Part shown: piece after piece, positions 3,622-49,096 of the stretch | How the letters are laid out: each line of letters opens with the position of its first letter | Position numbering within the stretch: the first letter of the stretch is position 1 | Assembly (NCBI GenBank): GCA_902620425.1 | Contig: CACNHX010000003.1 | Coordinates: 7,199 to 71,198 of the forward strand | Origin: an uncultured Alphaproteobacteria bacterium | Lineage (GTDB): Bacteria > Pseudomonadota > Alphaproteobacteria > HIMB59 > GCA-002718135 | Reading direction: 5' to 3' | DNA: 64,000 nt | Position numbers and translations under genes: made by a program | The notes under the pieces: model-generated | What the model was told of the DNA's origin: nothing | Databases searched by the model: none | Seen by the model: only the letters and a program-made list of their open reading frames with translations

Positions 3622-6600
3622 GCAGATTTTTCTTCTTGGATTAATACAGGTTGATCAAATTTATTGATCATCTCTTTTGGAACAATCTGCCAGAAGAGTA
3701 ATTTTTCATTTTCCCAATTTTCGAGTAAATTTTTTGCGTACATTGAATTTGTTTCCTTAATATGTTCTTCAATTTTTTGATGTAAAACTTTTTCCCAATA
3801 ATTTGTCATTTGTTGTTGATAGAAAATATCCTCAAGATTAATTCGAAGTGGTAGAGTGCCTTCTTTATCGTACACAAATGCCATACCTCCAGTCATTCCA
3901 GCTCCAAAATTATTTCCTACTTCACCGAGAATAACTGCACTTCCTCCAGTCATATATTCACATCCATTATCACCACATCCTTCAATAACAGCATGTGCGC
4001 CAGAGTTTCTAACAGCAAATCTATCACCGGCAGTTCCAGCTGCAAAAAGTTTACCACGCGTTGCTCCATATAGGACAGTATTCCCAATGATAACATTTTT
4101 GTTTGTTTTTAGTTGTGAAGATGAGCGTGGTTGAATAACAATCTTACCCCCTGATAATCCTTTTGCAACATAATCGTTAGCGTCACCAAAAACTTTAAGA
4201 GTAGTTCCTTGCACACTCCATGCTCCAAAAGATTGCCCAGCAGAGCCGTGAAAATTAACTGTAAAGAAATCCTCTGGAAGAGAGCTCATTCCTTTTGTTG
4301 TAGTAATTTCTGATGCAAGTCTTGTACCAATAGCTCTATCAGTATTTTTGATATTATAGTTTAGTTCAATTTTTTGATCTGTTTCAAAGAAAGACTTAGC
4401 ATCCTCTATGATTTTAATATCAAGGCTATCGCTAACTTTATTAATTGTATTTTTCTTTATATCAAATTCTCCAACTGATGAATCAATGGTTTGAATAATT
4501 GGATTTAAATCTAGATCATCAAGATCAGCACTTCCTCTACTGACTTGATATAAAAGATCAGATCTTCCAACTACTTCATCAAGAGAAGAAAAGCCTAGTG
4601 ATCCTAAAATTTCTCTTACTTCATCAGCAATAAAACTAAAAAGGTTAATTACTTTTTCTGGTGTACCGGTAAATTTTTCTCTAAGTTTTTCATCCTGAGA
4701 GCAAACTCCAACGGGGCAAGTATTTGAATGACATTGTCTAACCATTATACAGCCCATAGCAACTAAACTTGCTGTCCCAATTCCATATTCTTCTGCTCCA
4801 AGCATAGCCGCAATAACAATATCTTTTCCTGTTTTCAAACCTCCGTCAGTTCTAAGAACAACTTTATCCCTTAAGTTATTTAGAGATAGAACTTGATGTA
4901 CTTCACTTAATCCAAGTTCCCAAGGAAGTCCTGCGTACTTAATGCTTGTTTGTGGGCTTGCTCCAGTTCCACCATTGTGACCCGATATGAGTATCGTATC
5001 AGCTTTTGCTTTTGCAACACCAGCTGCGACTGTCCCAATCCCTGACTGAGCAACTAACTTAACGCATACTTTAGCTCTTGGATTAATTTGTTTCAAATCG
5101 TAAATAAGCTGAGCTAAATCTTCGATAGAATAAATATCATGATGAGGAGGAGGACTAATAAGTGTCACACCTTCAGTTGAATGTCTTAGTTTAGCAATTA
5201 ATTCTGTAACTTTTCCTCCTGGCAATTGTCCACCCTCACCAGGTTTTGCACCTTGTGCAACTTTAATTTCAATTTCTTCACAATTATTTAGATACTCCGC
5301 TGTTACACCAAATCGTCCACTTGCAATTTGTTTAATTTTTGATGATGCGTTATCTCCATTTGGTTTAGGTTTAAATCTAATCGGATCTTCACCACCTTCC
5401 CCTGAATCTGATTTAGCTCCTATCCTATTCATTGCTACAGAAAGAGTTTCGTGCGCTTCAGGACTTAGGGCTCCAAGTGATATTCCTGGTGCAACTAGCC
5501 TTTTTCTAATTTCTTGAGAAGGTTCTACTGTGTTAGAGTTACTATTGTCGTTATTCTTTTTGAAGTCTAAAAGATCACGTATATTTATAGGATCCATTTC
5601 ATCTATCATTGTAGAATATTTTTTAAATAAAGAATAATTATTAGAAGTTACTGCAGTTTGAAGCATGTGAATTGATCTTGCTTCAAAAGCATGTTTTTCG
5701 CCACCAAATCTGTAGCGATAGTTTCCTCCAATTGGTAACGTAATAATACTTTCTTCATAAGCCATGTCGTGAGCTAATCTAGATCTTCTTTCAATACCAC
5801 TAATTCCGATACCAGATATTTTAGAACTCATAGAAGGGAAATATTTGCTCATTAAATTTCTACTAAGACCAATTGCTTCAAAGTTACAACCACCTCGATA
5901 TGAATTAATCACTGATATTCCCATCTTACTCATAGTCTTGAGCAAACCATTATTTATAGAATTGATGAATCTCTCTACACATTCTTCATATGAGAGATTT
6001 TTAAATAATCCCTTTTTATGTCTTTCCGCTATAGCTTGTTGTGCCATATATGCATTCACACTTGTTGCTCCTACTCCGATAAGCACTGCAAAATATTGTA
6101 CATCTAAACATTCTGCAGATTGCACATTCAAGGAAATAAAAGTTCGAAGATTTTGTTTAATTAAATGATGATGAACAGAACTTGTAACTAATATCATAGG
6201 AAGAGCTATTCTTGTTTTAGACATTTCTTTGTCACTTAAAATTATATGAACATACCCCTCTCTAACAGCTTGTTCTGCTTCTAGGTTAATTCTTGCAATT
6301 TCTGTCTCAAAATTATTTTCAGTATTTGTTTTATCCATTGTAGTGTCAATGATCTTCACAGTATCTTTCATATATTTACGCATAGATTTGAATTGCTCAA
6401 TTGAAAGAACAGGGGAATTCAATTGTAAATGATCACATTGATCTTCATCTTCATCAAGAATATTACTTAAGTTTCCAATTCTAGTTCGAAGACTCATAAC
6501 AACTCTTTCTCTTAATGAATCAATTGGTGGGTTTGTAACTTGACTAAAATTTTGTCTAAAAAAGTGATGGAGTCCTCTATATTTATTTGAAAGTACAGCT

Positions 6601-8135
6601 AACGGAGTATCATCTCCCATCGATCCCGTTGCTTCTTTTTTTTCAGCAATCATTGGATGAAGTATTAATTCGATGTCTTCTACTGACCAAGCAAAGCATG
6701 CCATTCTCTTTCGTAGATCTCCAGAGTCTAAATCTCTAAATTCCTCATCAACAGATTGAACAAGTTTATCAATATACGTAATTTTTTTAGTCCAATCACC
6801 AAATGGTTTAGTTTCTGCCAAATACTTTTTTATCTCATGATCTTTAAAAAATTTTTTCTCTTTAAAATTGACTGCTATTAATTGACCTGGTCCTACCCTA
6901 CCTCTTTCTACTATTTCATTTTCTTTAATATCAACCATTCCAGTTTCAGAACCAGCAATAAGAAGATTTTTTGTCAGTGTATATCTTATAGGTCTAAGGC
7001 CATTTCTATCCATCCCAGCAATAGCCCAATCACCGTACGCACCACATATTGCTGCTGGACCATCCCATGGTTCCATAACTGCTCCACCATAAGCGTATAA
7101 ATCTTTTATTTTTTTTGGAAAATCTCTTCTATGGGACCAAGCTTCTGGAATTGTTATTATTTTAGCCATAGGTAAAGAGCGATTAGCTTTGACTAATAAC
7201 TCAATTGTTGAATCTAATGCAGCAGAGTCAGACGCTTTAGAATCAATTATGGGTTTTAAATCATCTACATTATTGCCAAAATTTTTATGTTCCATTCTTG
7301 GCTCATGAGCAGCCATCCAATTTTTATTACCTTTAAGTGTATTTATTTCACCATTATGCGCAATCACTCTAAAAGGCTGTGCTAAAGACCATGTAGGAAA
7401 TGTATTAGTTGAATAACGCTGGTGGTAAACTGCATATCTAGAGATAAAATTCTCATTTTGGATATCTGGATAAAAATTGGAAAGCTGTTCTGCTAAAAAC
7501 ATACCTTTATAAACAATAGACTGACAAGATAGTGAGCAAATATAAAAGTCTGAAATATTTTGATTTCTAATTTCTTTTTCTATTCTTTTTCTAATTATAT
7601 AAAGTTTATTATCAAATTGCTTTTCATCTTCTAGTTCTTCATTACAAATTAGTATTTGTTCTATTTCAGGCCTTGTTGCTTTTGCTTTATCACCAATAAT
7701 CGATGAATTAATTGGAACGTGTCTCCAACCATATATTTTCAAACCTTCTTTAATTATTTCAGATTCAACAATTGTACGAGCATTTTCTTGAGCGGCAAAA
7801 TCTGTACGTGGTAAAAAAATCATGCCAACCCCGAAAGGTAAATTATTAGGAGTGTGACCCGTTCTTTCTATTTGTTGAGTAAAAAAATTCTTTGGTATGG
7901 ATAACTGTATTCCTGCACCATCACCTGTTTTACCATCAGCATCAACTGCTCCACGGTGATACAAAACTCTTAAAGCTTGAACTCCTAACTCGACTATTTC
8001 TCTTGTCTCAGAGCCGTCCAAAGATGCTATTAGTCCAACACCACATGATGAATGTTCATCTTGTTCATTATAAACGTGATTTTCTTCTAGAAATTTTTTA
8101 TTCTTTTTATACTTTTCAATAAAGTGATTAGGCAT
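3618..8135 (-). CDS. gltB: Glutamate synthase large subunit
   Basis: 1505 aa; mature N-terminal CGVG, HNGEINT, KVAQGAKPGEGGQLPG, 3Fe-4S CIMVRQCHSNTCPVGVC, C-terminal beta-helix. Confidence 0.99.
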   Translation of the reverse strand: MPNHFIEKYKKNKKFLEENHVYNEQDEHSSCGVGLIASLDGSETREIVELGVQALRVLYHRGAVDADGKTGDGAGIQLSIPKNFFTQQIERTGHTPNNLPFGVGMIFLPRTDFAAQENARTIVESEIIKEGLKIYGWRHVPINSSIIGDKAKATRPEIEQILICNEELEDEKQFDNKLYIIRKRIEKEIRNQNISDFYICSLSCQSIVYKGMFLAEQLSNFYPDIQNENFISRYAVYHQRYSTNTFPTWSLAQPFRVIAHNGEINTLKGNKNWMAAHEPRMEHKNFGNNVDDLKPIIDSKASDSAALDSTIELLVKANRSLPMAKIITIPEAWSHRRDFPKKIKDLYAYGGAVMEPWDGPAAICGAYGDWAIAGMDRNGLRPIRYTLTKNLLIAGSETGMVDIKENEIVERGRVGPGQLIAVNFKEKKFFKDHEIKKYLAETKPFGDWTKKITYIDKLVQSVDEEFRDLDSGDLRKRMACFAWSVEDIELILHPMIAEKKEATGSMGDDTPLAVLSNKYRGLHHFFRQNFSQVTNPPIDSLRERVVMSLRTRIGNLSNILDEDEDQCDHLQLNSPVLSIEQFKSMRKYMKDTVKIIDTTMDKTNTENNFETEIARINLEAEQAVREGYVHIILSDKEMSKTRIALPMILVTSSVHHHLIKQNLRTFISLNVQSAECLDVQYFAVLIGVGATSVNAYMAQQAIAERHKKGLFKNLSYEECVERFINSINNGLLKTMSKMGISVINSYRGGCNFEAIGLSRNLMSKYFPSMSSKISGIGISGIERRSRLAHDMAYEESIITLPIGGNYRYRFGGEKHAFEARSIHMLQTAVTSNNYSLFKKYSTMIDEMDPINIRDLLDFKKNNDNSNSNTVEPSQEIRKRLVAPGISLGALSPEAHETLSVAMNRIGAKSDSGEGGEDPIRFKPKPNGDNASSKIKQIASGRFGVTAEYLNNCEEIEIKVAQGAKPGEGGQLPGGKVTELIAKLRHSTEGVTLISPPPHHDIYSIEDLAQLIYDLKQINPRAKVCVKLVAQSGIGTVAAGVAKAKADTILISGHNGGTGASPQTSIKYAGLPWELGLSEVHQVLSLNNLRDKVVLRTDGGLKTGKDIVIAAMLGAEEYGIGTASLVAMGCIMVRQCHSNTCPVGVCSQDEKLREKFTGTPEKVINLFSFIADEVREILGSLGFSSLDEVVGRSDLLYQVSRGSADLDDLDLNPIIQTIDSSVGEFDIKKNTINKVSDSLDIKIIEDAKSFFETDQKIELNYNIKNTDRAIGTRLASEITTTKGMSSLPEDFFTVNFHGSAGQSFGAWSVQGTTLKVFGDANDYVAKGLSGGKIVIQPRSSSQLKTNKNVIIGNTVLYGATRGKLFAAGTAGDRFAVRNSGAHAVIEGCGDNGCEYMTGGSAVILGEVGNNFGAGMTGGMAFVYDKEGTLPLRINLEDIFYQQQMTNYWEKVLHQKIEEHIKETNSMYAKNLLENWENEKLLFWQIVPKEMINKFDQPVLIQEEKSA

Positions 8136-28433: not shown

Positions 28434-30143
28434 TTAACTTTTTAATGGTAATTTAATGAGAAAACAAGCACCTCTAAAGTCTAATTTGTCACTTTCTGTT
28501 AATTCAATTGAACCATTGAATGAATTGATTATCTCGTAGGATATGGATAGCCCAAGACCTGAGTGCTTGTCCCGATCATCTATTCTATCAGTGTAAAATC
28601 TATCAAAAATTTTATTTTTTTCTTTCAAATCTATACCTTTTCCTTGATCATAAATTTTGATTTCAACACAATTTTCATTTTTTTTATTTGATGTAATTAA
28701 AATATTTGAATTATTTTTGGCAATTGAAATACTATTATCTATTAAATTTAGTATTACCTGCAAAAATTTATCTTTGTTAAGAAGTACTAAATTTTTATTA
28801 TTATCAGATTGAAATAAAATTTTAATATTTTTCTGATTAGTTGACTTTTCACTAAAATTTTCTTTTAGAAATTTGTTTATATTAGTTAGTTCAAAATTTT
28901 CTATTTCAATTTCTGCAATAGTTTTTGAAAAATGAGAAATGTCGGAGATCAATCTATTCATTCTGTCGATATCTTGATTAAAATTATTCATTACTTTGGT
29001 TCTATTTTCATTAGTTATGTTTTTGCTAGTTAATAATTCAAACGAAGATTTTATTGCTGTTAGTGGGTTTTTTAGTTCATGAGCAACATCAGAGCTAAAT
29101 TTTTCTAATTGATTGATTTGTGATTTCAATTCGTTTGACATAAGTTGTATTTGGTTAGATAAAATACCAATTTCATCAGATCTTAGAGGGTATATTAATT
29201 TTTTCTTATTTGTTTTATCTCTCTCAAGGACAGTGATTTTGGTTATTTGCCTTAATGGTGATATCAAACCTCTCAAAAAAATAAATGATAATAAGATTGT
29301 AACTAAAATAAATAATAGAAAAAAATTAAAGAAATTCAAAGATTGTCTAGCTAGTTCATTATTATTTAATAATAATTTATACTTTATTAGAACAACTCCA
29401 TAGACGTTATTATCTTGGATTATAGGTGAAGTTAAAATTCTAGTTATATCATTATTTTCATCTTCAAAAGTTTTAACAAGTTTCTGCTTTTCTTTAATAG
29501 TGTCAATAATCAAAATAATTTCATGGACATTTTTATCTAAATTTTTAGTAAATTTATTTTTAAGAAAGTAATTATTAATATAATTAAAATTATTAATATA
29601 AATTTTTTCAAATAAATTTGAGAAATCAGCTATATTTTCACGCGTTTCAGATAAATCTATTTCCTCAACATCTGTGCTCAGAAATAAATTTGATGAATCT
29701 GCAATTTTAATCCAATTTTCATTATAAATAATAGTGTTAAAATCTTTATCACCAAAGTTTTGAAATATAAATTGTTCAGTTGTAAACTTTTCTAACTCAG
29801 GTTCTGACAATTCTATAGGATTAATATTATCTACCAAGTCACAACTTTCCTTGTACGCTTCAATATCTTGAAGATATCTACAACGATAATCATACTGAAA
29901 AATTGGTACTCTTAATATTGAAGTGTTTTCTAAATATTTTGTTATATTTGATAAATTTAATCTTATTGATTGATCCCTATTATATATAAATTTATTATTT
30001 TGAATTAAGTTGAAATTGAAATAAGATAAAAATACTAAACCTAAAAATACAATTATTAAGTTAATTATAATGAGTTGAAATGTTAGATTATAACTTGATA
30101 AGGTAAATAATCTCTTAATCACGCCAAGAATATCCAGAGCCAT
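28434..30143 (-). CDS. chvG: Sensor histidine kinase ChvG/ExoS
   Basis: Two TM helices, HAMP (RSDEIGILS), H-box VAHELKNPL, HATPase (NLIDNS, DQGKG, FDRFYT, GLGLSI); follows chvI. Confidence 0.85.
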   Translation of the reverse strand: MALDILGVIKRLFTLSSYNLTFQLIIINLIIVFLGLVFLSYFNFNLIQNNKFIYNRDQSIRLNLSNITKYLENTSILRVPIFQYDYRCRYLQDIEAYKESCDLVDNINPIELSEPELEKFTTEQFIFQNFGDKDFNTIIYNENWIKIADSSNLFLSTDVEEIDLSETRENIADFSNLFEKIYINNFNYINNYFLKNKFTKNLDKNVHEIILIIDTIKEKQKLVKTFEDENNDITRILTSPIIQDNNVYGVVLIKYKLLLNNNELARQSLNFFNFFLLFILVTILLSFIFLRGLISPLRQITKITVLERDKTNKKKLIYPLRSDEIGILSNQIQLMSNELKSQINQLEKFSSDVAHELKNPLTAIKSSFELLTSKNITNENRTKVMNNFNQDIDRMNRLISDISHFSKTIAEIEIENFELTNINKFLKENFSEKSTNQKNIKILFQSDNNKNLVLLNKDKFLQVILNLIDNSISIAKNNSNILITSNKKNENCVEIKIYDQGKGIDLKEKNKIFDRFYTDRIDDRDKHSGLGLSISYEIINSFNGSIELTESDKLDFRGACFLIKLPLKS

Positions 30144-30828
30144 ATCTTGTTCTTATTTGATCAAAAGAATTATCATAAGATCTGAATTTTTTTCTTAATC
30201 TCTTGATATGGCTATCAATAGTCCTGTCATCAACATATATTGAATCACCATACATTGCGTCCATTAATTGATTTCTATCTTTTACTACACCAGGATACTG
30301 AGCAAGAGATTTTATTAAATTAAACTCTGCAACCGTAAGTTCAATTTCTATATCTTTCCAAAAACATAATTGTTTATCTTCATCTAGTATCAAATCACCC
30401 TTAATAAAATTTTGTTTTTTAATATTATTATCTTTTTGTTCTTCGTTTCTATTGTTATGAATTCTTAACACTGTTCTTATGCGCTCATTTAATAATTTTT
30501 GTGAAAAAGGTTTTTTTATATAATCTGAAGCTCCCATTCTTAATCCAATTATCTCATCTTGTTCATGATCTTTTGAAGTTAAAAAGATAATAGGAAGTTC
30601 TTTAAGATTTTCAATCTTGCTCGAACGTACTTTTGAAAGAAGTTCATTTCCATCCATTTTTGGCATCTTAATATCAAACAGTCCCAAATCGTATGATTTG
30701 CTTTCAAGAGCCTCTAGGGCTTCAACTCCATTAAGAAATGTATCAACTGTAAATCCCTCACTTTGCAGAGAAAGAGATACTGATGTGAGAATCGACTGCT
30801 CGTCGTCAACTAATGCTATCTTTGGCAT
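30115..30828 (-). CDS. chvI: OmpR-family response regulator ChvI
   Basis: IALVDDE, LFDIKMPKMDG, FLTSKD, DYIKKPFS, VKDRNQLMD, YVDDRTIDSHIKRLRKKF, YGSGY. Confidence 0.93.
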   Translation of the reverse strand: MPKIALVDDEQSILTSVSLSLQSEGFTVDTFLNGVEALEALESKSYDLGLFDIKMPKMDGNELLSKVRSSKIENLKELPIIFLTSKDHEQDEIIGLRMGASDYIKKPFSQKLLNERIRTVLRIHNNRNEEQKDNNIKKQNFIKGDLILDEDKQLCFWKDIEIELTVAEFNLIKSLAQYPGVVKDRNQLMDAMYGDSIYVDDRTIDSHIKRLRKKFRSYDNSFDQIRTRYGSGYSWRD

Positions 30829-30970
30829 ACTGCTTTTTATTAATAATTTATGGCAGATTTAAGTTCAAAGAAAAAATGACTCAGTTAACAAAATGTGACT
30901 TAGGTTGATAAGTAAATGTAAATATTTCAATAACTTGTTTGCCTCATAAAAATATGAATTAAGTAAGGGA

Positions 30971-30998
30971 TTGACATGATAAAAAAAATATTTATGTT
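30971..30998 (+). promoter_or_regulatory. Sigma70-type promoter of nrdAB-grx (TTGACA-N16-TATGTT)
   Basis: Consensus -35 TTGACA at 30971-30976; -10-like TATGTT at 30993-30998. Confidence 0.55.
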
Positions 30999-31010
30999 CT
31001 TATTTTGTTC
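30996..31010 (+). promoter_or_regulatory. Alphaproteobacterial LexA (SOS) box GTTC-N7-GTTC
   Basis: GTTC TTATTTT GTTC, an exact match to the known alpha LexA direct repeat, overlapping the -10 element. Confidence 0.7.
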
Positions 31011-31022
31011 TTATTGCGATAT

Positions 31023-31038
31023 TGAGCAAATGTTGTAT
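31023..31038 (+). promoter_or_regulatory. NrdR box 1 (degenerate)
   Basis: TGAGCAAATGTTGTAT, 9/16 identical to box 2 and exactly 31 bp upstream, the usual tandem spacing. Confidence 0.5.
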
Positions 31039-31053
31039 TGTCCCTTTTCGGCG

Positions 31054-31069
31054 GCACTACATATTGTGT
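31054..31069 (+). promoter_or_regulatory. NrdR box 2
   Basis: GCACTACATATTGTGT fits acaCwAtATaTwGtgt; 39 bp before the nrdA ATG. Confidence 0.8.
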
Positions 31070-31108
31070 TTTTCGACAATAATTTTTTAAAAAATGGATA
31101 GAATTTAA

Positions 31109-33862
31109 ATGGCAGACAATCTACAGGTATCAGCAAAAATCTCAGAAGAAAAAAGTGTAAATATTTTAACATTAAGTGTCGTGCGTCGTGACGGAGCTAT
31201 CACCCCTTTCAAATCTGATAAAATTTCAAACGCTATAAAAAAAGCATTCTTAGCACAAACAAAAATTAGAAATGATAAAAATAAAGAAAAGGAACAACAA
31301 GATGGAATTCATAAAACTGTTGAAGCTTTAACGCATAAAGTTGTGTCAGCTCTAACAAGAAGGATTGCTGACGGTGATATGATTCACATTGAGGATATAC
31401 AAGATCAAGTGGAGTTAGCACTTATGAGGGATGAGCATCATAAAGTTGCTAGAGCGTATGTTTTGTATAGAGAACAGAGAGCGGCTTCAAGATATCACAC
31501 TAAAAAACTGAAAGAACAAGTTGGAGAAAAAGCTTCTTCAATGATGGTAACTAAAAGAGATGGAAGTAAAGAGCCAATTTCACTAGATAAAATAACCAAT
31601 AGAGTTTCTGTTCTATCTACTGGCTTAAACATTGATCCAATTGTCGTTGTTCAAAAAGCTGTTCCAGGCTTATATAGTGATATTAGTTCCGTTGAAATTG
31701 ATACTTATCTTGCTGAAACTGCTGCTGCTTTAACAGTTGAACATCCTGATTATTCTTATCTTGCAGCAAGAATAAAAGTAAACTCACTTCATAAAGAAAC
31801 TCCGGGTTTCATCATAGCAACAAAAAATTTATACGATGATGGATTGTTAAGAGAAGATTATTATAAAAAGGTCATGGAGAATGCAGACTTAATTGAGTCT
31901 GTAATTGACTATGACAAAGATTATACTTTTGATTATTTTGCTCTCACAACTCTAATAAGAGCATATTTATTAAAGTTCGATAATAAAACAATTGAAAGAC
32001 CTCAAGATCTTTGGATGAGAGTAACTTTAACAGTTACCGGTAATGAGTTTAATTTAGATAAAATAAAAGAAACTTATAAAAGTTTATCAACGGGTATGTA
32101 TACACATGCTACCCCAACATTGTTTAATAGTGGATTAAAAATGCAACAATTATCTTCATGCTTTTTAATAGGAATGGAAGATGACTCCATAGAAGGTATT
32201 TTTAATACTATAAAAGATTGTGCCCTAATTTCTAAAACAGCTGGTGGTATTGGCATGCACGCTCACAATATTAGAGGTAGTGGAAGTAGAATAAAATCAA
32301 CAAACGGGAAATCTAACGGCCTTATTCCATTTTTGAAAATATTTAATGAGACTGCTAAATCAGTTGATCAAGGCGGTGGTAAAAGAAAAGGTTCTTTTGC
32401 AGTTTACTTAGAACCTTGGCATGCTGACATTGAGAAATTTCTAGAACTTAGAAAAAATACAGGTGCCGAAGAATTTAGAGCAAGAGATTTGTTTTACGCT
32501 TTATGGATACCAGATTTATTCATGAAAAGAGTAGAAAATGATGAAGAGTGGACACTTATGAGTGAACATGAATGTCCAGGCCTCTCAGATGTTTATGGAG
32601 ACGAGTTTGAAAAACTTTACACAAAGTATGAAAATGAAATGAAGCATTTAGAAAAAATTAAAGCGAGAGATTTAATGTCTAAAATCATAGAAGCACAAAT
32701 AGAAACAGGACAACCTTATATGCTTTATAAAGACTCTATTAATAATAAGTCTAATCAAAAAAATATTGGTATCATTAAATCTTCAAACCTTTGTGCAGAG
32801 ATAGTTGAATATTCAGATAGGAATGAAACATCTGTATGTAATTTGGCTTCCATAGCTCTGCCAAAATTTGTAAAAAAATCAGATAAAAAATTAATATATG
32901 ACTATGACGCTCTTTACGAAACTGCAAAATTGGCTACAAAAAACTTAGATGAAGTAATTGATATTAATTTCTATCCAACTGATAAAACGGAAAGATCTAA
33001 TAATAAACATAGGCCAATAGGTTTAGGAATACAGGGACTTGCAGATGTCTACTTTAAGATGGGAATAGCCTATGAATCTGAGGAAGCTAAAGAAATAAAT
33101 AAATTAATTTTTGAGACAATTTATTTTGGAGCTTTAGAAGCTTCATGCGATTTAGCAAAAGAAAAAGGAGCCTACGAAACATTTAATAATTCACCCATCT
33201 CAGAGGGTAAGTTTCAATTTGATCTGTGGAATGTTAATCCTTCTTCAAAGTGGGATTGGGATTCACTTAGAGCTAAAATTAAAGAGCACGGTGTGAGAAA
33301 TTCTTTAACCACAGCTTGTATGCCAACTGCGTCAACAGGTATTATACTAGGTAATACTGAAACATTCCAAATACAAACGTCTAATATATATAAAAGACAA
33401 ACACTCTCTGGTGAGTTCCTACTCGTAAATAGATATTTAGTGAATGAACTTTCTCAAAGAGGATTATGGAATAAAGAAATGAGGGACAAAATAATTTTAG
33501 AAAATGGATCGGTAGAGAACATAAATGAAATTCCAACCGAACTTAAAGAAGTTTATAAAACAGTATGGGAAGTATCACAAAAAACTGTAATTGATATGTC
33601 AGCAGATAGAGCACCATTTATTGATCAAACCCAATCGATGAATCTTTGGCTTTCAACACCTACATTTGGAAAAGTTAATTCGATGCATATGTACGCTTGG
33701 AAAAAAGGTCTTAAAACAGGAATGTATTATTTAAGAAGTAGATCAGCAGTTGATGCTGTAAAAGTCACAGTTTCATCAGAAAAAGCAGCTAAAGATGCTT
33801 ATATAAATACTGCTATTAAACAAAACAATGAACCAGAAGATTGCGAAACTTGCAGTGCATAA
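31109..33862 (+). CDS. nrdA: Class I ribonucleotide reductase alpha subunit, eukaryote-like core, two N-terminal ATP cones
   Basis: QLSSCFL, SNLCAEI (Asn-Cys-Glu), VCNLASI, GMYYLRS, C-terminal CETCSA; cones begin VVRRDG and VTKRDG. Confidence 0.98.
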   Translation: MADNLQVSAKISEEKSVNILTLSVVRRDGAITPFKSDKISNAIKKAFLAQTKIRNDKNKEKEQQDGIHKTVEALTHKVVSALTRRIADGDMIHIEDIQDQVELALMRDEHHKVARAYVLYREQRAASRYHTKKLKEQVGEKASSMMVTKRDGSKEPISLDKITNRVSVLSTGLNIDPIVVVQKAVPGLYSDISSVEIDTYLAETAAALTVEHPDYSYLAARIKVNSLHKETPGFIIATKNLYDDGLLREDYYKKVMENADLIESVIDYDKDYTFDYFALTTLIRAYLLKFDNKTIERPQDLWMRVTLTVTGNEFNLDKIKETYKSLSTGMYTHATPTLFNSGLKMQQLSSCFLIGMEDDSIEGIFNTIKDCALISKTAGGIGMHAHNIRGSGSRIKSTNGKSNGLIPFLKIFNETAKSVDQGGGKRKGSFAVYLEPWHADIEKFLELRKNTGAEEFRARDLFYALWIPDLFMKRVENDEEWTLMSEHECPGLSDVYGDEFEKLYTKYENEMKHLEKIKARDLMSKIIEAQIETGQPYMLYKDSINNKSNQKNIGIIKSSNLCAEIVEYSDRNETSVCNLASIALPKFVKKSDKKLIYDYDALYETAKLATKNLDEVIDINFYPTDKTERSNNKHRPIGLGIQGLADVYFKMGIAYESEEAKEINKLIFETIYFGALEASCDLAKEKGAYETFNNSPISEGKFQFDLWNVNPSSKWDWDSLRAKIKEHGVRNSLTTACMPTASTGIILGNTETFQIQTSNIYKRQTLSGEFLLVNRYLVNELSQRGLWNKEMRDKIILENGSVENINEIPTELKEVYKTVWEVSQKTVIDMSADRAPFIDQTQSMNLWLSTPTFGKVNSMHMYAWKKGLKTGMYYLRSRSAVDAVKVTVSSEKAAKDAYINTAIKQNNEPEDCETCSA

Positions 33863-33875
33863 GAAGGAGTAAAGA

Positions 33876-34865
33876 ATGATATCAAAAGGCGTTAAATCAA
33901 TATTTCCAATAAAAAACCAAGAAATTTGGGATAGGTACAAGCAACATATTCAAGCCTTTTGGACAACCGAAGAAGTATCTTTGCAAGATGATTTAAGAGA
34001 TCTTGAAACTTTAAATGATGGTGAAAAACATTTTATTAAGCACGTACTTGCATATTTTGCTAACTCCGAAGCAATGATTAACGAAAACCTAGCAAGTAGG
34101 TTCTACAAAGAAATTTTAATTCCTGAAGCGAGATGTTTCATATCAATGCAAATGTTGAATGAATCAATTCATGCAGAGATGTATGGTCTTCAAATTGAGG
34201 CTTATGTAAAAGATGCAAAAGAAAAGGATATGCTTTTTGATGCAATACAAAACGTACCATGTATTAACCACAAAGCACAATGGGTATCAAAATGGCTTAA
34301 TGGTAGTCAAAACCTACTAACCAGACTAATAGGTTTTGGATTAGTTGAAGGTTTATTTTTTGCAGGCTCTTTCTGTGCTATTTATTATTTTAGAAAAAGA
34401 GGTTTACTGCCTGGTTTAGCCTTATCTAACGATTGGATTGCAAGAGATGAAGGAATGCACTTTAGCTTCTCATCGTTAATGTTCAGGACTTTAAGAGACA
34501 AGTTTAATAATAAAACATTAACAGATGCGGATATTAGTGATTTATCTTTGATTCCTTCTGACGTTCCTCAATCACAATTTGAGGAAATTGTTAGAGAAGC
34601 GGTAGCATTTGAAAAAGAATTTGTAAGAGATGCTTTACCTGTGGATTTAATCGGTATGAATGCTGATTTAATGTGTCAGTATATCGAGGCTGTTGCAGAC
34701 AGAATTGCAGATTTGTTTGAATTTGATAGAGTCTTTAAGACAGAAAATCCTTTTGATTTTATGAGAGCTTTAGATGTACAAAACGTTACAAACTTTTTTG
34801 AAAAAAGAGTATCTGAATATCAAAGACCTACAGATAGGGCTTTAAGTTTTGATGAAGCATTTTGA
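33876..34865 (+). CDS. nrdB: Class I ribonucleotide reductase beta subunit, eukaryote-like
   Basis: FWT.EEV.L, NESIHAEMY, VEGLFFAGSF, RDEGMH, NFFEKRVSEYQ; SD AAGGAG upstream. Confidence 0.98.
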   Translation: MISKGVKSIFPIKNQEIWDRYKQHIQAFWTTEEVSLQDDLRDLETLNDGEKHFIKHVLAYFANSEAMINENLASRFYKEILIPEARCFISMQMLNESIHAEMYGLQIEAYVKDAKEKDMLFDAIQNVPCINHKAQWVSKWLNGSQNLLTRLIGFGLVEGLFFAGSFCAIYYFRKRGLLPGLALSNDWIARDEGMHFSFSSLMFRTLRDKFNNKTLTDADISDLSLIPSDVPQSQFEEIVREAVAFEKEFVRDALPVDLIGMNADLMCQYIEAVADRIADLFEFDRVFKTENPFDFMRALDVQNVTNFFEKRVSEYQRPTDRALSFDEAF

Positions 34866-35104
34866 TGGAAGCAGAGATATATTCTAAAACTAATTGTGGA
34901 TACTGTGATAGAGCTAAACTACGGTTAGCGAAATATAATCCAAAAATTTATATGCTTGATACAGATTATACGAGAGACGATTTTTTTGAAAAGTTTCCAA
35001 ACGCAAAAACTTTTCCTCAAATAATTTTAAATGGTAAAAAAATTGGAGGGTATCATGAGCTTGAAAAATGGTTTGAAATGAATACCTTTGATGAGGAGTT
35101 CTAA
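34865..35104 (+). CDS. Dithiol glutaredoxin (CGYC) with acidic/aromatic C-terminal tail; ATG overlaps nrdB stop (TGATG)
   Basis: YSKTNCGYCDRAK, TFPQI, IGGY; ends NTFDEEF. Confidence 0.93.
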   Translation: MEAEIYSKTNCGYCDRAKLRLAKYNPKIYMLDTDYTRDDFFEKFPNAKTFPQIILNGKKIGGYHELEKWFEMNTFDEEF

Positions 35105-35229
35105 ATAACCTTTTTGTTTCCTTTTCTCGTGTAAGTTTTTTTACTTTTAACAATTCTTTGTTTGTACTTAGGTAGTTTCAAATCTTGAGCAAAGGGGTTG
35201 CGTTTTTTTATTTTTTTTTTAATTAACAT
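35101..35229 (-). CDS. Small basic protein resembling ribosome-rescue factor ArfA (42 aa, not in ORF track)
   Basis: Hand translation: MLIKKKIKKRNPFAQDLKLPKYKQRIVKSKKTYTRKGNKKVI*. It aligns without gaps to the ArfA core up to KK, then lacks 3 residues before Y.RKG. ATG lies 10 nt after the polA stop. Confidence 0.7.
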   Translation of the reverse strand: MLIKKKIKKRNPFAQDLKLPKYKQRIVKSKKTYTRKGNKKVI

Positions 35230-35239
35230 AAATTAAGAT

Positions 35240-37981
35240 CTAATGTGCCTGACCCCAATTATCGCCAACACCAAAATCAACTGTCAGTGGAACTGAAAAA
35301 TCTTTATATTTTAAATGTATTGATTCCATAATTGTTTTTACATTGCTCACTAAATTGTCAAATTTTTTACTTTCCACTTCGAAAATCAGTTCGTCATGTA
35401 CTTGTAAAAGCATTTTTGCCTCAATGTTTTTAACTTTTATTTCTTTATGAATTTCAATCATTGCTAACTTAATTATATCTGCTGCACTACCCTGTATTGG
35501 AGCATTAATAGCTTGTCTTTCAGCAAACCCCCTTACAGCAAAATTCTTATCCGAAATTCCCTTAATATTAATTTTCCTTTTAAAAATTGTTTCAACATAT
35601 TGATTTGTTTTAGCAAAATCAATTTGATGATCCATATATTTTTTAATATTTGGATATTTTTTAAAATACTCATTTATATAATCTTTCGCTTCTGTATTAG
35701 AAATGTCAAGTTGTTTAGCTAAGCCGTATGGACTGATACCATACAGAATACCAAAATTAATTGCTTTTGCTTTTCTTCTATAATCATTATTTATTTGACT
35801 ATCTTTCAAATTAAATATTTCCTTAGCAGTTGATGCATGAATATCTTCATTATTTTTAAAAGCTTTAATAAAATTTTTATCACGAGAAATTTCTGCAGCT
35901 AATCTAAGCTCTATTTGGGAATAATCGAAACTTACTAATTTTTTTCCTTTTCCACTAACAAAAGCTGTTCTAATTTTTTTTCCATTCTCAGTTCTAATTG
36001 GAATATTTTGAAGATTTGGATCTGTAGAGCTTAATCGACCTGTTAATGTATTAGCTAAACCAAATGATGTATGAATTCTACTTTTACTGTCTGTTAATCT
36101 AAATAGAGCATCTGTATAAGTTGATTTAAGTTTTGTTAATTCCCTCCAATCGAGAACTAATTGAGCAATTTCAAACCCATCTGAAGCAAGGTTATTTAAA
36201 GTTGAGGAATCAGTAGAATATGTACCTGATTTTGTTTTTTTACCACCAGGTATTTTAAGATTCACAAATAATATCTCCCCTAATTGTTTAGGTGAACCAA
36301 TATTGAACTCTTCTTTAGATAATTTATAAATATTCTTTTCAAGTTTTTTACTTTCATTTTCAAATTCATTACTTAGACTTGTTAAAAACTTTTTATTTAC
36401 TTCAATACCATTTGCTTCAATTGAAGATAATACCTCTACAAGAGGCAAATCTATATTTTGATAAACAAAATTAGCCCTTTCTTTTATTAAACGAGGATAA
36501 AGATTTTGAAAAAGTCTAAATGTTAATAGAGAATCTTCAGCAGCGTAATTAGTTGCTTTTTCAATTGCTACTTTATCAAAAGTAATTTCATTTTTCCCTG
36601 TGCCTACAACTTCCTTATATTTAATAGTTGTATGATTTAAGTGATTAAACGATAGATCGTCTAAATTATGCTTATAAATCCCATTATCAATTGAGTAGGA
36701 AATTAGCATTGTGTCTGCAATTGAGTTAAAAATTACTCCATATTTATTTAAAATTCTAATATCATATTTGATATTTTGACCAATTTTTAAAATTGATTTG
36801 TTTTCACAGATTTTATTAATAAGATTAATTACATATTTTTCATCTAACTGACCATTAACTCTTTTAGATCCATCTGGGGTAGTATGATTGATTGGAATAT
36901 AGTAAGAAATGTCTTCACTGTAGCAAAGTGAGATGCCAATTAATTCAGCTTTTTCTAAATTTAGTGAATTTGTTTCAGTATCTATTGCGCATAAGCCGCT
37001 CTTTTCTATTTCCTTTAAAATAATTTCAAAATTATTTTTTGAATCAATTAACTGATACTTTGGTTCTAAATCTTTTTTTAAATTAATATTATTATTTTCA
37101 TTAGATATAAAAGAATTTGATTTTAATCTTTCTGATGTTGATTTAAAACCCTGTTCTTTAAGAAATTTAAAGATGTTATTATTTTCTTTTTTTAGTTCGT
37201 TATAACTCTTTATACTCTTAATAGTATTAGGTACTTGAACATCTTTTTTTAGTGTTACAAGTTCTAAACTTAATCTTATATCATTTTCTGCTACTGCTAA
37301 TATGTTTCTTCTTTTTTCTTGTTTAATTTTATCAATGTTTTTAATTAAACCATCAATATCATTAAATTCGTTTATTAATTGAGATGCAGTCTTAGGCCCA
37401 ATACCTGGGGCACCTGGAATATTATCAACTTTATCTCCAGTTAAAGCTTGAATAAAAATAACTTTATCCGGTTGCACTCCAAATTTTTCTTCAACATCTT
37501 TAATTTCTATTTTTTTATTTTTCATTGGATCAAGCATTGTCACATTTTTACTAACAAGCTGCATTAAATCTTTATCTGAAGACACTATAATGGTTTCAAT
37601 TTTATCTTTTTCAGCTAAACTAACATAAGTAGCAATTAAATCGTCGGCTTCAAATCCTTCTATTTCTAATTGTGGGATATTGAAACTCTTAACACACTCT
37701 CTTATTAAAGGAAATTGTGGTATTAAATCATCAGGAGCTTCTCCTCTATTAGCTTTATATTCTGGGTAGATTTTATTTCTAAAGTTTTCCCTTGCTGCAT
37801 CAAATATGACAATCATTTTATCATCACTATAATCTTCTATCAGTTTAACGAGCATATTTGTAAATCCAAAAACTGCATTAATAGGTGTTCCATCGGATCG
37901 ATTCATTGGGGGAAGACCGTAATATGCTCTAAATATATAAGCAGAACCGTCAACTAATATTAATCTTCCCTTTTTATTCAT
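35240..37981 (-). CDS. polA: DNA polymerase I
   Basis: 5'-3' exo LVDGSAYIFRAY, 3'-5' exo AIDTET/YAAED, polymerase DYSQIELR, RRKAKAINFGILYG, QVHDEL. Confidence 0.99.
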   Translation of the reverse strand: MNKKGRLILVDGSAYIFRAYYGLPPMNRSDGTPINAVFGFTNMLVKLIEDYSDDKMIVIFDAARENFRNKIYPEYKANRGEAPDDLIPQFPLIRECVKSFNIPQLEIEGFEADDLIATYVSLAEKDKIETIIVSSDKDLMQLVSKNVTMLDPMKNKKIEIKDVEEKFGVQPDKVIFIQALTGDKVDNIPGAPGIGPKTASQLINEFNDIDGLIKNIDKIKQEKRRNILAVAENDIRLSLELVTLKKDVQVPNTIKSIKSYNELKKENNNIFKFLKEQGFKSTSERLKSNSFISNENNNINLKKDLEPKYQLIDSKNNFEIILKEIEKSGLCAIDTETNSLNLEKAELIGISLCYSEDISYYIPINHTTPDGSKRVNGQLDEKYVINLINKICENKSILKIGQNIKYDIRILNKYGVIFNSIADTMLISYSIDNGIYKHNLDDLSFNHLNHTTIKYKEVVGTGKNEITFDKVAIEKATNYAAEDSLLTFRLFQNLYPRLIKERANFVYQNIDLPLVEVLSSIEANGIEVNKKFLTSLSNEFENESKKLEKNIYKLSKEEFNIGSPKQLGEILFVNLKIPGGKKTKSGTYSTDSSTLNNLASDGFEIAQLVLDWRELTKLKSTYTDALFRLTDSKSRIHTSFGLANTLTGRLSSTDPNLQNIPIRTENGKKIRTAFVSGKGKKLVSFDYSQIELRLAAEISRDKNFIKAFKNNEDIHASTAKEIFNLKDSQINNDYRRKAKAINFGILYGISPYGLAKQLDISNTEAKDYINEYFKKYPNIKKYMDHQIDFAKTNQYVETIFKRKINIKGISDKNFAVRGFAERQAINAPIQGSAADIIKLAMIEIHKEIKVKNIEAKMLLQVHDELIFEVESKKFDNLVSNVKTIMESIHLKYKDFSVPLTVDFGVGDNWGQAH

Positions 37982-43014: not shown

Positions 43015-46559
<3,545 letters not shown>

Positions 46560-46562
46560 ATT

Positions 46563-47678
46563 TTAGACTCGCATTGGCATCAAAACATAAACTAGTTTAT
46601 CATTTGATTTTTCTTGAGCTGTTATAGGTGAAGTGTTATCATTTAAGTTAATACATATCTCTTCATCTTCTAAATTATTTACGATATCCATAATATACTT
46701 TGAATTGAAACCTATTTCAATTTCATCTCCAGAATAATTAATTTTTATATCTTCTGACGCAGTACTACTTTCATTGTTAATTGAATTTAAATTTAAAATA
46801 TTCTCAATTAATTTAAATTTAATCACAGGAGACTTATCATTTGCAATAGTACTAACTCTATCAACAGCAGCTAAAAGTTTTTCTCTACTTACATTTAAAA
46901 CATTGGTATTATTTTTTGGAATAACTCTTTTGTAATCTGGAAAACTACCATCTATTAATTTAGAAACAAATATAATTTTTCCTATAAAGAATACAATCTT
47001 GTTTGTACTGATTGATATTTCAATATCTATATCAATTTCTGATAATAATTTTGATAATTCATAAATTGTTTTCTTTGGTATGATAACACCTGGTATTTGT
47101 TCAATATTACTAGAAATATCATGACTAAATTTAGCTAACCGATGTCCATCAGTCCCAACTAAAGTAACTATATTTTTATTATCATCTTTATTTACACTAA
47201 AATACAAGCCATTTAAAAAATACCTTGTTTCTTCATTAGAAATTGCAAACTTAGTCTTGTCTATTAATTTAAATAATATTCTAGAATTTAATTTTATATT
47301 TATTCCAGTATTTTCATAATCTATAATAGGATAATCTTCTTTAGGTAAGCAATGCAATGAAAATCTTGATCCATCTGCTCTTAAAGTTAATAATTTTCCA
47401 TTGTTTGAAATTATCTCAATTTCACCATTATCATCAATCTTCCTTACTATATCGTATAAAATTTGAGAGTTTATTGTAGTAGATCCATCTTCAAAAATTT
47501 TGCAGCTAACTTTTTCTACAATTGAAATATCCATATCAGTTGAAGATAAGATTAGTTGATTATTTTTTGCTTCAATTGATATATTTGCTAAAATTGGAAG
47601 AGAATTTTTTTTATCAACTATACCTTGTAAGTGTGAAAGAGTTTTAAAAAAAAGTGAGCGTGATATTTTAAATTTCAT
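46563..47678 (-). CDS. dnaN: DNA polymerase III beta sliding clamp
   Basis: EETRYFLNG, GTDGHRL, IIPKK, SKLIDGSFPDY, IGFN, VLMPMRV. Confidence 0.98.
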   Translation of the reverse strand: MKFKISRSLFFKTLSHLQGIVDKKNSLPILANISIEAKNNQLILSSTDMDISIVEKVSCKIFEDGSTTINSQILYDIVRKIDDNGEIEIISNNGKLLTLRADGSRFSLHCLPKEDYPIIDYENTGINIKLNSRILFKLIDKTKFAISNEETRYFLNGLYFSVNKDDNKNIVTLVGTDGHRLAKFSHDISSNIEQIPGVIIPKKTIYELSKLLSEIDIDIEISISTNKIVFFIGKIIFVSKLIDGSFPDYKRVIPKNNTNVLNVSREKLLAAVDRVSTIANDKSPVIKFKLIENILNLNSINNESSTASEDIKINYSGDEIEIGFNSKYIMDIVNNLEDEEICINLNDNTSPITAQEKSNDKLVYVLMPMRV

Positions 47679-47701
47679 ACTTAAACATATGATAAAAAGA
47701 A

Positions 47702-49096
47702 TTAAGAATCTATAAGTCTTTTTAGTAATTCTAAATCTTCATTAAAGTTTACATCACTTAGTTTAAGTTCCTCAATCTTTTTTACTGCATGCATAACAGT
47801 AGTATGATCTCTACCGCCAAATTTTCTACCAATCTCCGGTAAAGATCTTGAAGTTATGGATTTGGCTAAGTACATTGCTATTTGTCTAGGTCTAGCGACA
47901 GATCGCGATCTTCTAGGTGAATGCATGTCAGTAATTCTAATATTAAAATGTTCTGCAACTTTTTTTTGTATTTCTTCAATTGTAATTTTTTTATTTGATG
48001 ATTTTAATAAATCTTGAAGTACTAACTGTGCCGTTTCAACTGTTATAGGCGTTCCTACCAGTGTTGCGTGCGCAACTAATCTATTGAGTGCACCTTCCAT
48101 TTCTCTAACATTTGAAATAATTCTATGTGAAAGAAATTCTAAAACCTTTGGCGGAATTTCCACACCTCTTTTGTGAGCCTTTTCTATTAAAATACCGAGT
48201 CTTAATTCATAAGTTGTTGGATGGATATCTGCTACGAGGCCACAACCTAGTCGAGATTTTAATCTTTCTTGTACCCCATCTAGATCAGTTGGTGTTTTAT
48301 CAGCTGAAATTACTATTTGTTTATTTTGTTCTATTAGAGCATTAAATGTGTGAAAAAATTCTTCTTGAGTATTATCTTTACCACTTATAAATTGAACGTC
48401 ATCGATCATAAGCACATCTATTGACCGAAACTGTTCTTTAAAAGCTGATGTATCTTTATATCTCAGAGCTCTTACAAATTGATACATAAATTTTTCAGCA
48501 GAAAGATAGATTACCTTTCTTTCTGGTTGTTGTTGTTTAATTTTCCATCCGATAGCATGCATAAGGTGAGTTTTACCTAACCCTACACCGCCACATAAAA
48601 ATAATGGATTAAATGTTATTTTATTTGCTTCTGATACTCTTTGAGAAGCTGCAAAAGCTAATTCATTTGGTTTCCCAACAACAAAATTTTCGAAAGTAAA
48701 TCTAGGATCTAACGGAGCACCAAATTCATTAGGATATGTTGAGGATTGATTAGACCTTAAGTCCATTGAAGATTTCCAGTGATTATCATTGCTTTTAATA
48801 GTTCTTGTTGTTCCAGGAACTATTCTTCCACCTGAGGGTTTAACAACAAATTTAATGGTATCAATTTTGTCAATAAAATTTTTTGCTTCACTTTTTATCT
48901 TGTCAGAATAATTATTAACTATCCAATCTCTTAAAAACTTTGTTGGTACGGAAAATGTTATGATAGTTTCTTCTACAGAAACATAGTTTAAATGTTTTAG
49001 CCAATTGTTGAAGGCGGAGTCACCAACATTTTTTTTTAGATTTTTTTTAAAGGATAGCCACTTACTGTCATCAAATATAGTAGATGTATTATCCAT
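47702..49096 (-). CDS. dnaA: Chromosomal replication initiator DnaA
   Basis: FTFENFVVG..N, GGVGLGKTHL, IDDVQF, RLKSR, FGGRDHTTVMHA. Confidence 0.99.
   Translation of the reverse strand: MDNTSTIFDDSKWLSFKKNLKKNVGDSAFNNWLKHLNYVSVEETIITFSVPTKFLRDWIVNNYSDKIKSEAKNFIDKIDTIKFVVKPSGGRIVPGTTRTIKSNDNHWKSSMDLRSNQSSTYPNEFGAPLDPRFTFENFVVGKPNELAFAASQRVSEANKITFNPLFLCGGVGLGKTHLMHAIGWKIKQQQPERKVIYLSAEKFMYQFVRALRYKDTSAFKEQFRSIDVLMIDDVQFISGKDNTQEEFFHTFNALIEQNKQIVISADKTPTDLDGVQERLKSRLGCGLVADIHPTTYELRLGILIEKAHKRGVEIPPKVLEFLSHRIISNVREMEGALNRLVAHATLVGTPITVETAQLVLQDLLKSSNKKITIEEIQKKVAEHFNIRITDMHSPRRSRSVARPRQIAMYLAKSITSRSLPEIGRKFGGRDHTTVMHAVKKIEELKLSDVNFNEDLELLKRLIDS

Follow-up and report, generated by a model that had tools for sequence, protein, structure and literature searches.

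We found that a short open reading frame (ORF) directly behind polA in an uncultured alphaproteobacterium of the SAR11 type encodes a small basic protein related to the ribosome-rescue factor ArfA. The DNA analysed here, called the window in the following, is a stretch of 64,000 nucleotides (nt) from contig CACNHX010000003.1 (assembly GCA_902620425.1), and the ORF lies on its minus strand, where the sequence from 35229 down to 35101 reads ATG, 41 more codons and TAG and is translated as MLIKKKIKKRNPFAQDLKLPKYKQRIVKSKKTYTRKGNKKVI. On balance we favour the reading that its product is a minimal member of the ArfA superfamily, i.e. a disordered, Lys/Arg-rich, loop-less peptide of 42 residues that would combine an ArfA-like mechanism with stop-terminated expression. 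The first-pass annotation of this DNA had placed an ORF of 42 codons at 35101-35229 behind polA, and both its coordinates and its translation proved correct. It had also called the ORF hidden, which holds for the ORF-length cutoff used at that time; in public assemblies, however, it already has a gene call, under the name 'hypothetical protein [Pelagibacteraceae bacterium]' (P0370; also loci L002 and L003). The ORF and the parts that matter for the comparison with ArfA are the following.

35101..35229, minus strand: the ORF with its TAG stop, starting with ATG, 42 codons; a loop-less (DUF7230-like) ArfA-like small basic protein
35149..35199, minus strand: ORF residues 11-27, NPFAQDLKLPKYKQRIV, aligned with E. 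coli ArfA N14-E30 by HMMER and hhalign
35104..35148, minus strand: ORF residues 28-42, KSKKTYTRKGNKKVI, the Lys/Arg-rich tail, aligned with E. coli ArfA K31-N48
35134..35139, minus strand: the K31-T32 junction, site of the 3-residue deletion that turns KK-GKG-SY of ArfA into KK-TY of the ORF

The relation to ArfA was seen in profile comparisons from both sides. With a hidden Markov model (HMM) built from 59 SAR11-type proteins of 42 residues (the SAR11-only HMM), E. coli ArfA scored 11.7-12.2 bits (p ~1e-5). In the control, one of 20000 composition-matched shuffles of ArfA(1-55) scored as well, and reversed ArfA gave 3.2 bits. HMMER aligned L17-N38 of this model to L20-K44 of E. coli ArfA, with a 3-residue gap at G-K-G. 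With hhalign, the SAR11-only profile matched a profile of enteric ArfA at a probability of 71% (P 4e-5), and the broad family described below matched it at 92-95% (P 5e-8 to 6e-7, 31-32 columns), residues 8-39 being paired with ArfA residues 11-45. The controls for the broad family stayed far lower, with 4.6% for the reversed ArfA profile and 18% for the best of 200 column-shuffled ArfA profiles. The ArfA side of these comparisons was shallow, as the search for homologues of E. coli ArfA gave only enteric sequences of at least 80% identity. When the window was cut into 1387 six-frame segments, the enteric ArfA HMM placed the ORF at the top (8.8 bits, against 4.6 for the next segment), and a broad-family HMM from which the SAR11 rows had been removed gave the ORF as its sole match (E 4e-20). 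The 72-residue E. coli ArfA sequence used is identical to PDB chains 5h5u, 5mdv and 5u4i, and the E. coli core that the first-pass annotation had quoted agrees with these chains. Its alignment of the elements N..A..L..P.[YF][KR]QR[IV].K.KK and Y.RKG, without GKG, was reproduced by HMMER and hhalign alike, and the profile similarity to ArfA that it had proposed to look for was obtained at the family level. On these profiles we conclude that the loop-less family, the ORF included, is to be regarded as homologous to ArfA.

Several bridging sequences carry features of both groups. P0076 resembles the ORF nearly residue for residue over the first 28 residues and then continues as KPKKGKGSFKRKKLKV; it carries KKGKGSFKRK, i.e. 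the GKG loop at the place where the ORF has its gap, and at the DNA level this difference is in frame. Against Pfam ArfA, where the cutoff is 25.5, P0076 reached 29.4 bits, and in PDB it hit ArfA chains with E 0.005; its gene stands directly after polA on a marine contig. The convergent ORF downstream of P0076 is presumably a sugar-kinase (pfkB-like) gene. A tblastn search of phages with P0076 was nearly empty, probably through low-complexity masking. P0368 (JGI metagenome, 70 amino acids (aa)) joins two copies head to tail, a loop-bearing one (…KPKKGKGSFKRKKK) and a loop-less one (…KSKKIYNRKKK), and scored 27.4 bits against Pfam ArfA; judged by its sequence, it appears as a natural 'Rosetta' that links Pfam ArfA and DUF7230. 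P0389 (…YSRKGKHGKTEA) scored 27.1 bits against DUF7230 and 16.8 bits against ArfA, and is labelled ArfA in IMG. Similarly, a Citromicrobium phage protein that is annotated as ArfA reads RNPLAGTLANPAFRQRKVRPLKGRGSYTRKGR, with both RNPLA...P.FRQR and KGRGSY.

What the first-pass annotation had overlooked is that the ORF is no one-off, and that it is part of a very large loop-less family which is abundant in phages. The SAR11-only HMM, searched against 1.84 billion representative proteins, found at least 450 clusters (50% identity) at E<=1e-3, and a profile search of a larger collection gave 2369 proteins. The members of this wider family are 35-70 aa long and have the motif RNP[IMV]A.[DE]LR.PKY..R[IV]V.SKK.Y.RK, and the GKG insertion was present in 0 of the 147 top family representatives. 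In the ORF the loop-less motif RNP.A..L..PKY..R[IV]V.SKK.Y.RK takes the form RNPFAQDLKLPKYKQRIVKSKKTYTRK, within a protein of 42 aa (motif proteins measure about 35-60 aa). The family corresponds to Pfam DUF7230 (PF23876) and to phrog_20887, and in neither of these is a function assigned. DUF7230 members were retrieved by the SAR11-only HMM at E 1e-9 to 1e-5, and the ORF matched phrog_20887 with E 1.2e-7 over residues 8-37. The Pfam model of DUF7230 gave no reportable score for the ORF and E 0.23 at best for its SAR11-type relatives.

With tblastn against GenBank phages, relatives were found in large phages of Sinorhizobium, Agrobacterium, Rhizobium, Rhodobacter and Ochrobactrum, and also in Roseobacter, Citromicrobium, Acinetobacter and Pelagibacter phages, nearly all of them annotated as hypothetical. 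Relatives with 42-69% identity are encoded by 89 IMG/VR contigs, and the SAR11 form itself (at least 74% identity) had no copy in IMG/VR. The family contexts that were looked up include arrays of small ORFs that all run in one direction, as is typical of the early regions of phages, and at least one context is bacterial. According to a report of 2025 (PMC12753301), gp30 of pelagiphage HTVC027P contains an ArfA domain (PF03889) and is expressed while the phage infects SAR11. Many members of the loop-less family (e.g. P0201, P0225, P0245 and P0251) have short, variable and often hydrophobic tails past the Y.RK core, such as …SSAFFAL, …RPFAFAA, …PHFFKVA and …SSSFLFY, which are reminiscent of the unstable hydrophobic tail of full-length E. 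coli ArfA, and some of these tailed members might still use a non-stop or tail-dependent control.

The ORF is a real gene under purifying selection. A search of 5.8 billion proteins gave 78 homologue clusters with 74-95% identity, which come from marine samples in Tara, ENA, JGI and NCBI. Almost all of these homologues measure exactly 42 aa, a length that 59 SAR11-type proteins share, and those that exceed it are artefacts of an upstream start or a frameshift. The gene order of the window, polA, ORF, grx (convergent), nrdB, nrdA, recurs unchanged in single-cell genomes of the SAR11 type. The first-pass annotation had proposed to follow the ORF in close relatives, and the DNA alignment of five orthologues was free of gaps, with the same frame, the ATG, the TAG, the 10-nt spacer behind polA and the stop overlap with grx all kept and with changes mostly at third codon positions. 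The ratio of nonsynonymous to synonymous substitution rates (dN/dS; Nei-Gojobori) was 0.09-0.21 in every informative pair, at dS values up to 0.87. The adjoining features in the window are as follows.

35230..35239, minus strand: spacer of 10 nt from the polA stop to the ATG of the ORF, of the same length in relatives
35240..37981, minus strand: polA (DNA polymerase I, 913 aa), upstream of the ORF in the same orientation, with its TAG stop at 35240-35242
34862/34865..35104, plus strand: the glutaredoxin gene grx, convergent with the ORF, with its TAA stop at 35102-35104

The identity of polA follows from the Pfam domains of its orthologue in locus L002. The TAG of the ORF and the TAA of grx share bases as CTAA at 35101-35104, just as the first-pass annotation had described; it had also mentioned the same arrangement at two other gene junctions, one of which we found (3618-3621) and the second of which we did not find among the junctions of the window.

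The occurrence of the gene in SAR11 was sampled thinly, by a genome scan with the C-terminus of polA in which three close genomes were among the matches listed. The closest among the matches listed, in which the polA C-terminus is 94-96% identical, are single-cell assemblies of marine origin that bear the label uncultured Alphaproteobacteria, and the relatives of the ORF are labelled Pelagibacteraceae. In most other Pelagibacteraceae sampled, among the matches listed (polA 51-58% identical, including Ca. Pelagibacter sp. Uisw_092), the ORF is not behind polA, and polA is there directly followed by a response regulator and a histidine kinase (L011, L016, L017, L028, L049, L053 and L063, at about 3400-5700). 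In the window the response regulator and histidine kinase lie beyond nrdA (28434-30828). Among the matches listed, only this lineage has nrdA-nrdB-grx and the ORF between polA and the two-component genes (window 28434-35239), which suggests that the block is a lineage-specific insertion or rearrangement. Cassettes of ribonucleotide reductase (RNR) and glutaredoxin are also common in marine phages.

Two explanations would deprive the ORF of any relation to ArfA. A chance ORF in an AT-rich spacer might look like this one, which lacks an obvious Shine-Dalgarno sequence and, being short, did not reach the earlier ORF cutoff; the low dN/dS at substantial dS and the gap-free alignment with frame, start and stop kept refute this for practical purposes, and there are 78 homologue clusters and thousands of relatives over phages and bacteria. 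Alternatively, the likeness to ArfA could be convergent or compositional, the product being a Lys-rich peptide of a genome of 28% GC with another role, e.g. polA-linked nucleic-acid binding. We regard this as very improbable. The protein is indeed short, consists of about 36% Lys, reaches a low absolute score (12 bits) and as a single sequence has no database match, but shuffles, the reversed sequence and column-shuffled profiles fail to give the score, only this ORF scores among the 1387 Lys-rich six-frame segments, and the bridging sequences have the same N-terminal half, with the loop as the sole difference.

By analogy with ArfA, the product would act as follows. The basic C-terminal half KSKKTYTRKGNKKVI would thread into the 30S mRNA entry channel only if the channel is empty, as when a ribosome has reached the 3' end of a truncated mRNA and stalled. 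The decoding centre would be occupied by the middle segment NPFAQDLKLPKYKQRIV, which would dock release factor 2 (RF2), and the docked RF2 would then hydrolyse the peptidyl-tRNA. In E. coli ArfA, N14-E30 forms a short helix and a strand that is added to the beta-sheet of RF2, K31-N48 plugs the empty mRNA entry channel, and the order seen by cryo-electron microscopy ends at about residue 48 (PMC8012679). ORF residues 1-42 correspond to about residues 4-48 of E. coli ArfA, counting the 3-residue gap, so that the last residue falls at about position 48. E. coli ArfA shortened to 40 residues is inactive (PMC8012679), and because the 42 residues reach to about E. coli position 48, the SAR11 protein would end just past the minimal functional length. 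The ORF would probably be expressed from the polA transcript, 10 nt behind polA, and its own stop would stand directly past the part that is ordered in the ArfA structures, with no hydrophobic tail and no detectable stem-loop. With these three properties, truncation of the mRNA would probably not be needed for activity, and the feedback through transfer-messenger RNA (tmRNA) that controls E. coli arfA would be escaped. The first-pass annotation had stated that the C-terminal extension of ArfA is missing, and the stop after residue 42 bears this out. Ribosome binding, the use of RF2 and constitutive expression are what we infer, and ribosome rescue by the product is plausible. TGA ends 7 of the 48 large ORFs in the window, and from the use of TGA stops we infer that the organism must have RF2. 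AlphaFold2 modelled the ORF product at low confidence (predicted local distance difference test, pLDDT, 66) and mostly as coil, with residues 14-17 in a short helix; a coil model would fit, weakly and without being diagnostic, a disordered ArfA-like peptide that is off the ribosome.

A number of observations weigh against an ArfA-like rescue factor. KGKGS, the most conserved motif of ArfA, is not in the ORF. Ala18 of ArfA is aligned with Gln15 of the ORF, a position that is Lys, Gln or Arg throughout the family, and an Ala that is invariant in the family (Ala14 of the ORF) stands one position before the Ala18 equivalent. In E. coli ArfA the A18T change blocks the activation of RF2 (PMC8012679). 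Because the Ala18 equivalent is Gln and the family Ala is shifted by one, the activation of RF2 by the ORF product may work differently or not at all. The K44-H45 pair of ArfA docks in the mRNA entry channel (PMC8012679). The ORF does contain Y-T-R-K-G, but in place of K-H the window has N-K and the close relatives L006-L008 have K-K. In the family, K-H at the ArfA offset from the conserved Tyr was seen in 38 of 204 members although the query profile has no His there, a recurrence that counts in favour of the relation to ArfA. Alone, the ORF had no match in Pfam or PDB even at E<=10, and it stays below the Pfam ArfA (PF03889) gathering threshold of 25.5 bits. It also had no match in NCBIfam, which contains no ArfA model (E. 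coli ArfA itself scores nothing there), and a PDB profile search with the first ORF-family alignment gave no match, an expected E of ~1 having probably been lost to speed filters. Marine metatranscriptome (Logan) contigs cover the ORF, one of them over 262 nt without mismatch (35003-35264), but these contigs are unstranded and the signal over the ORF could be grx read-through or DNA carry-over. Finally, the ORF is no universal SAR11 function, as other Pelagibacteraceae sampled do not have the gene behind polA. Since the loop, Ala18, the K-H pair and the extension are all absent and the Pfam threshold is not reached, the ORF is best described as a relative of ArfA and not as a canonical member.

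The expression of the ORF was assessed from the sequence around it; the negative results from folding are in silico and come from a genome of 28% GC. The conserved length of the spacer (10 nt) suggests co-transcription or coupling with polA. Neither the gap from polA to the ORF nor the sequence downstream of the ORF had a terminator-like site, and there was no conserved promoter between polA and the ORF, promoter-like matches being at or below the shuffle expectation. One promoter-like site in the 3' end of polA (35287-35258) was rejected: its -10 hexamer falls in the codons of the conserved G-D-N-W of polA, it is not preserved in L006-L008, and site counts equal those of shuffles. On the ORF strand no stable structure was found (z = 0.13 over 311 nt). 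RNAalifold over five genomes gave a positive, i.e. penalising, covariation term with one compensatory pair, and the long imperfect stem that it drew around the ORF stop was not retained (-4.5 to -10.7 kcal/mol over 83 nt, z -1.25 to +1.3). Rfam and tRNA/tmRNA scans of the window gave no match. The missing hairpin and the missing tail agree with stop-terminated, tmRNA-uncoupled expression as in silico findings, and are no proof of it.

The canonical control of arfA would be a different matter: the product would arise from a truncated, non-stop mRNA, through 3' processing or termination in the grx overlap, would be tagged through tmRNA and would serve as a backup system. Such control did evolve in ArfA and BrfA alike (PMC8012679), many members of the loop-less family have variable, often hydrophobic tails past the core, and with no terminator between the ORF and the grx antisense strand the 3' end of the mRNA is undefined. 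We nevertheless think it improbable here, as the ORF of the window is tail-less beyond the core, the 83-nt stem-loop is neither stable nor covarying (z -1.25 to +1.3, -4.5 to -10.7 kcal/mol), and the in-frame stop stands at the same codon in five of five aligned genomes, with a length of 42 aa in 59 proteins. It is also conceivable, though in our view unlikely, that the product is a true ArfA homologue that sits in the mRNA channel with a role other than RF2-mediated rescue. It could plug the channel or act in a hibernation-like way, compete with tmRNA-SmpB, or bring in RF1 or a different hydrolase, and such a role may have been inherited from phages, for the management of ribosomes during host mRNA destruction. 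The abundance of the family in phage genomes, in early-gene-like arrays of small ORFs, would suit this, as would the lack of conservation of the Ala18 position and the KGKGS loop, and ArfT and BrfA are examples of small basic peptides with different release-factor partners (PMC8012679). On the other hand, no part of the alignment is better conserved than P.[FY][RK]QR[IV], with which ArfA touches RF2 and the decoding centre, loop-bearing proteins above the Pfam ArfA threshold have the same N-terminal half, and the chromosomal copy stands among housekeeping genes and is under purifying selection.

Some other features of the region were observed. In the metatranscriptome, the 3' end of nrdB (34723-34845) had a word depth of 130-240 in run X28, and the depth was below 10 over grx, the ORF and polA; judged by contig depth, there is much RNR mRNA and little transcript from the polA side. 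On the plus strand, a fold across the grx stop (35050-35132) had -16.1 kcal/mol and z -2.06, with 6 of 200 shuffles as good, and was not seen on the minus strand; the nrdAB-grx message could have a weak structure at its 3' end here. Within the ORF, close to its start, codons 4-6 and the first base of codon 7 (35211-35220, minus strand) form a run of 9-10 A that codes for KKK and is retained in five of five aligned genomes, which may merely reflect AT bias. Poly(A) tracts cause ribosome sliding in E. coli. The second CTAA overlap, at 3618-3621, joins the convergent ORFs 2890-3621 (plus strand) and 3618-8135 (minus strand, 1505 aa). The window as a whole has a GC content of 28.3%, and its genes include dnaA, dnaN, recF, gyrB, nrdAB and polA. 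On the minus strand at 43015-49096 the order is dnaA, dnaN, recF (237 aa, partial-looking) and gyrB, an order which suggests that the window includes the region of the origin of chromosomal replication.

A broader proposal, which we put forward tentatively and consider possible rather than probable, is that SAR11-type bacteria and many phages, notably those of Alphaproteobacteria, use a constitutive, stop-terminated, loop-less 'mini-ArfA' that would rescue non-stop ribosomes without tmRNA feedback. If this is true, DUF7230 and phrog_20887 would be an unrecognised branch of ArfA, rescue that depends on a release factor would extend far beyond beta-/gamma-proteobacteria, and phages would carry a mini-ArfA to free ribosomes while shredding host mRNA. 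According to reviews, ArfA is confined to some beta-/gamma-proteobacteria, and ArfB is absent from the rickettsial branch of Alphaproteobacteria in a survey that included 'Candidatus' species (PMC8012679, PMC4235212). The ORF would be a concrete candidate for a backup of trans-translation in streamlined marine alphaproteobacteria, and so for backup rescue in an abundant marine lineage, and its 42 residues are few enough for direct synthesis. Through a link of DUF7230/phrog_20887 to ArfA, thousands of small proteins now called 'hypothetical', among them many phage proteins, would gain a function, and ribosome rescue would be indicated as a common phage-encoded activity. Additionally, the natural deletion of the loop together with the missing non-stop device would be informative on which parts of ArfA are essential. 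Burroughs and Aravind (2019) described a wider range for ArfT, not for ArfA, and DUF7230 had no mention in the literature searched. Both the link between DUF7230/phrog_20887 and ArfA and the chromosomal copy of the SAR11 type appear to be unreported in that literature; the automatic annotation of IMG already calls at least one family member ArfA.

Compared with known systems, the ORF product is closest in kind to ArfA itself (YhdL, PF03889; E. coli, gamma/beta-proteobacteria). Both are small, basic and disordered, and they have in common, in collinear order, N-x-[IFY]-x-x-x-L-x-x-P-x-[FY]-[KR]-Q-R-[IV]-x-K-x-K-K and Y-x-R-K-G. They differ in the loop, where the ORF has KSKK-TY and ArfA has KNKKGKGSY, the G-K-G of the KGKGS loop being gone in every alignment, and in the 25-residue C-terminal extension with a hydrophobic degron-like tail, which the ORF does not have. 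The full length of the ORF corresponds to about the 46-48 residues of ArfA that are ordered on the ribosome. Unlike E. coli arfA, the ORF stops at its own TAG, with no predicted RNase III or terminator hairpin, and it is found behind polA in a SAR11-type alphaproteobacterium, outside the beta-/gamma-proteobacteria to which reviews confine ArfA. The members of DUF7230, phrog_20887 and phrog_2701 have the same loop-less architecture as the ORF, with RNP[IMV]A.[DE]L..PKY..R[IV]V.SKK.Y.RK, and neither Pfam nor PHROGs ties this family to ArfA. The ORF differs from these members in its Lys-rich N-terminal extension MLIKKKIKK, and from the phage members in its fixed chromosomal site among housekeeping genes. 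Gp10 of Citromicrobium phage vB_CbaS-RXM has RNPLA...P.FRQR and ...SYTRKGR as in the family and comes from a marine alphaproteobacterial setting as well; it carries a KGRGS loop and a longer tail, whereas the ORF is loop-less and chromosomal. The gp30 of HTVC027P, a phage gene with a marine alphaproteobacterial host, can be likened to the ORF through the report of PF03889 only. BrfA of Bacillus is made from a non-stop mRNA and has only the K-H motif in common with ArfA, and ArfT of Francisella uses both RF1 and RF2 (PMC8012679). Both are without detectable sequence homology to the ORF, and both follow the same functional logic: the peptide, small and basic, detects that the mRNA channel is empty and brings in a class I release factor.

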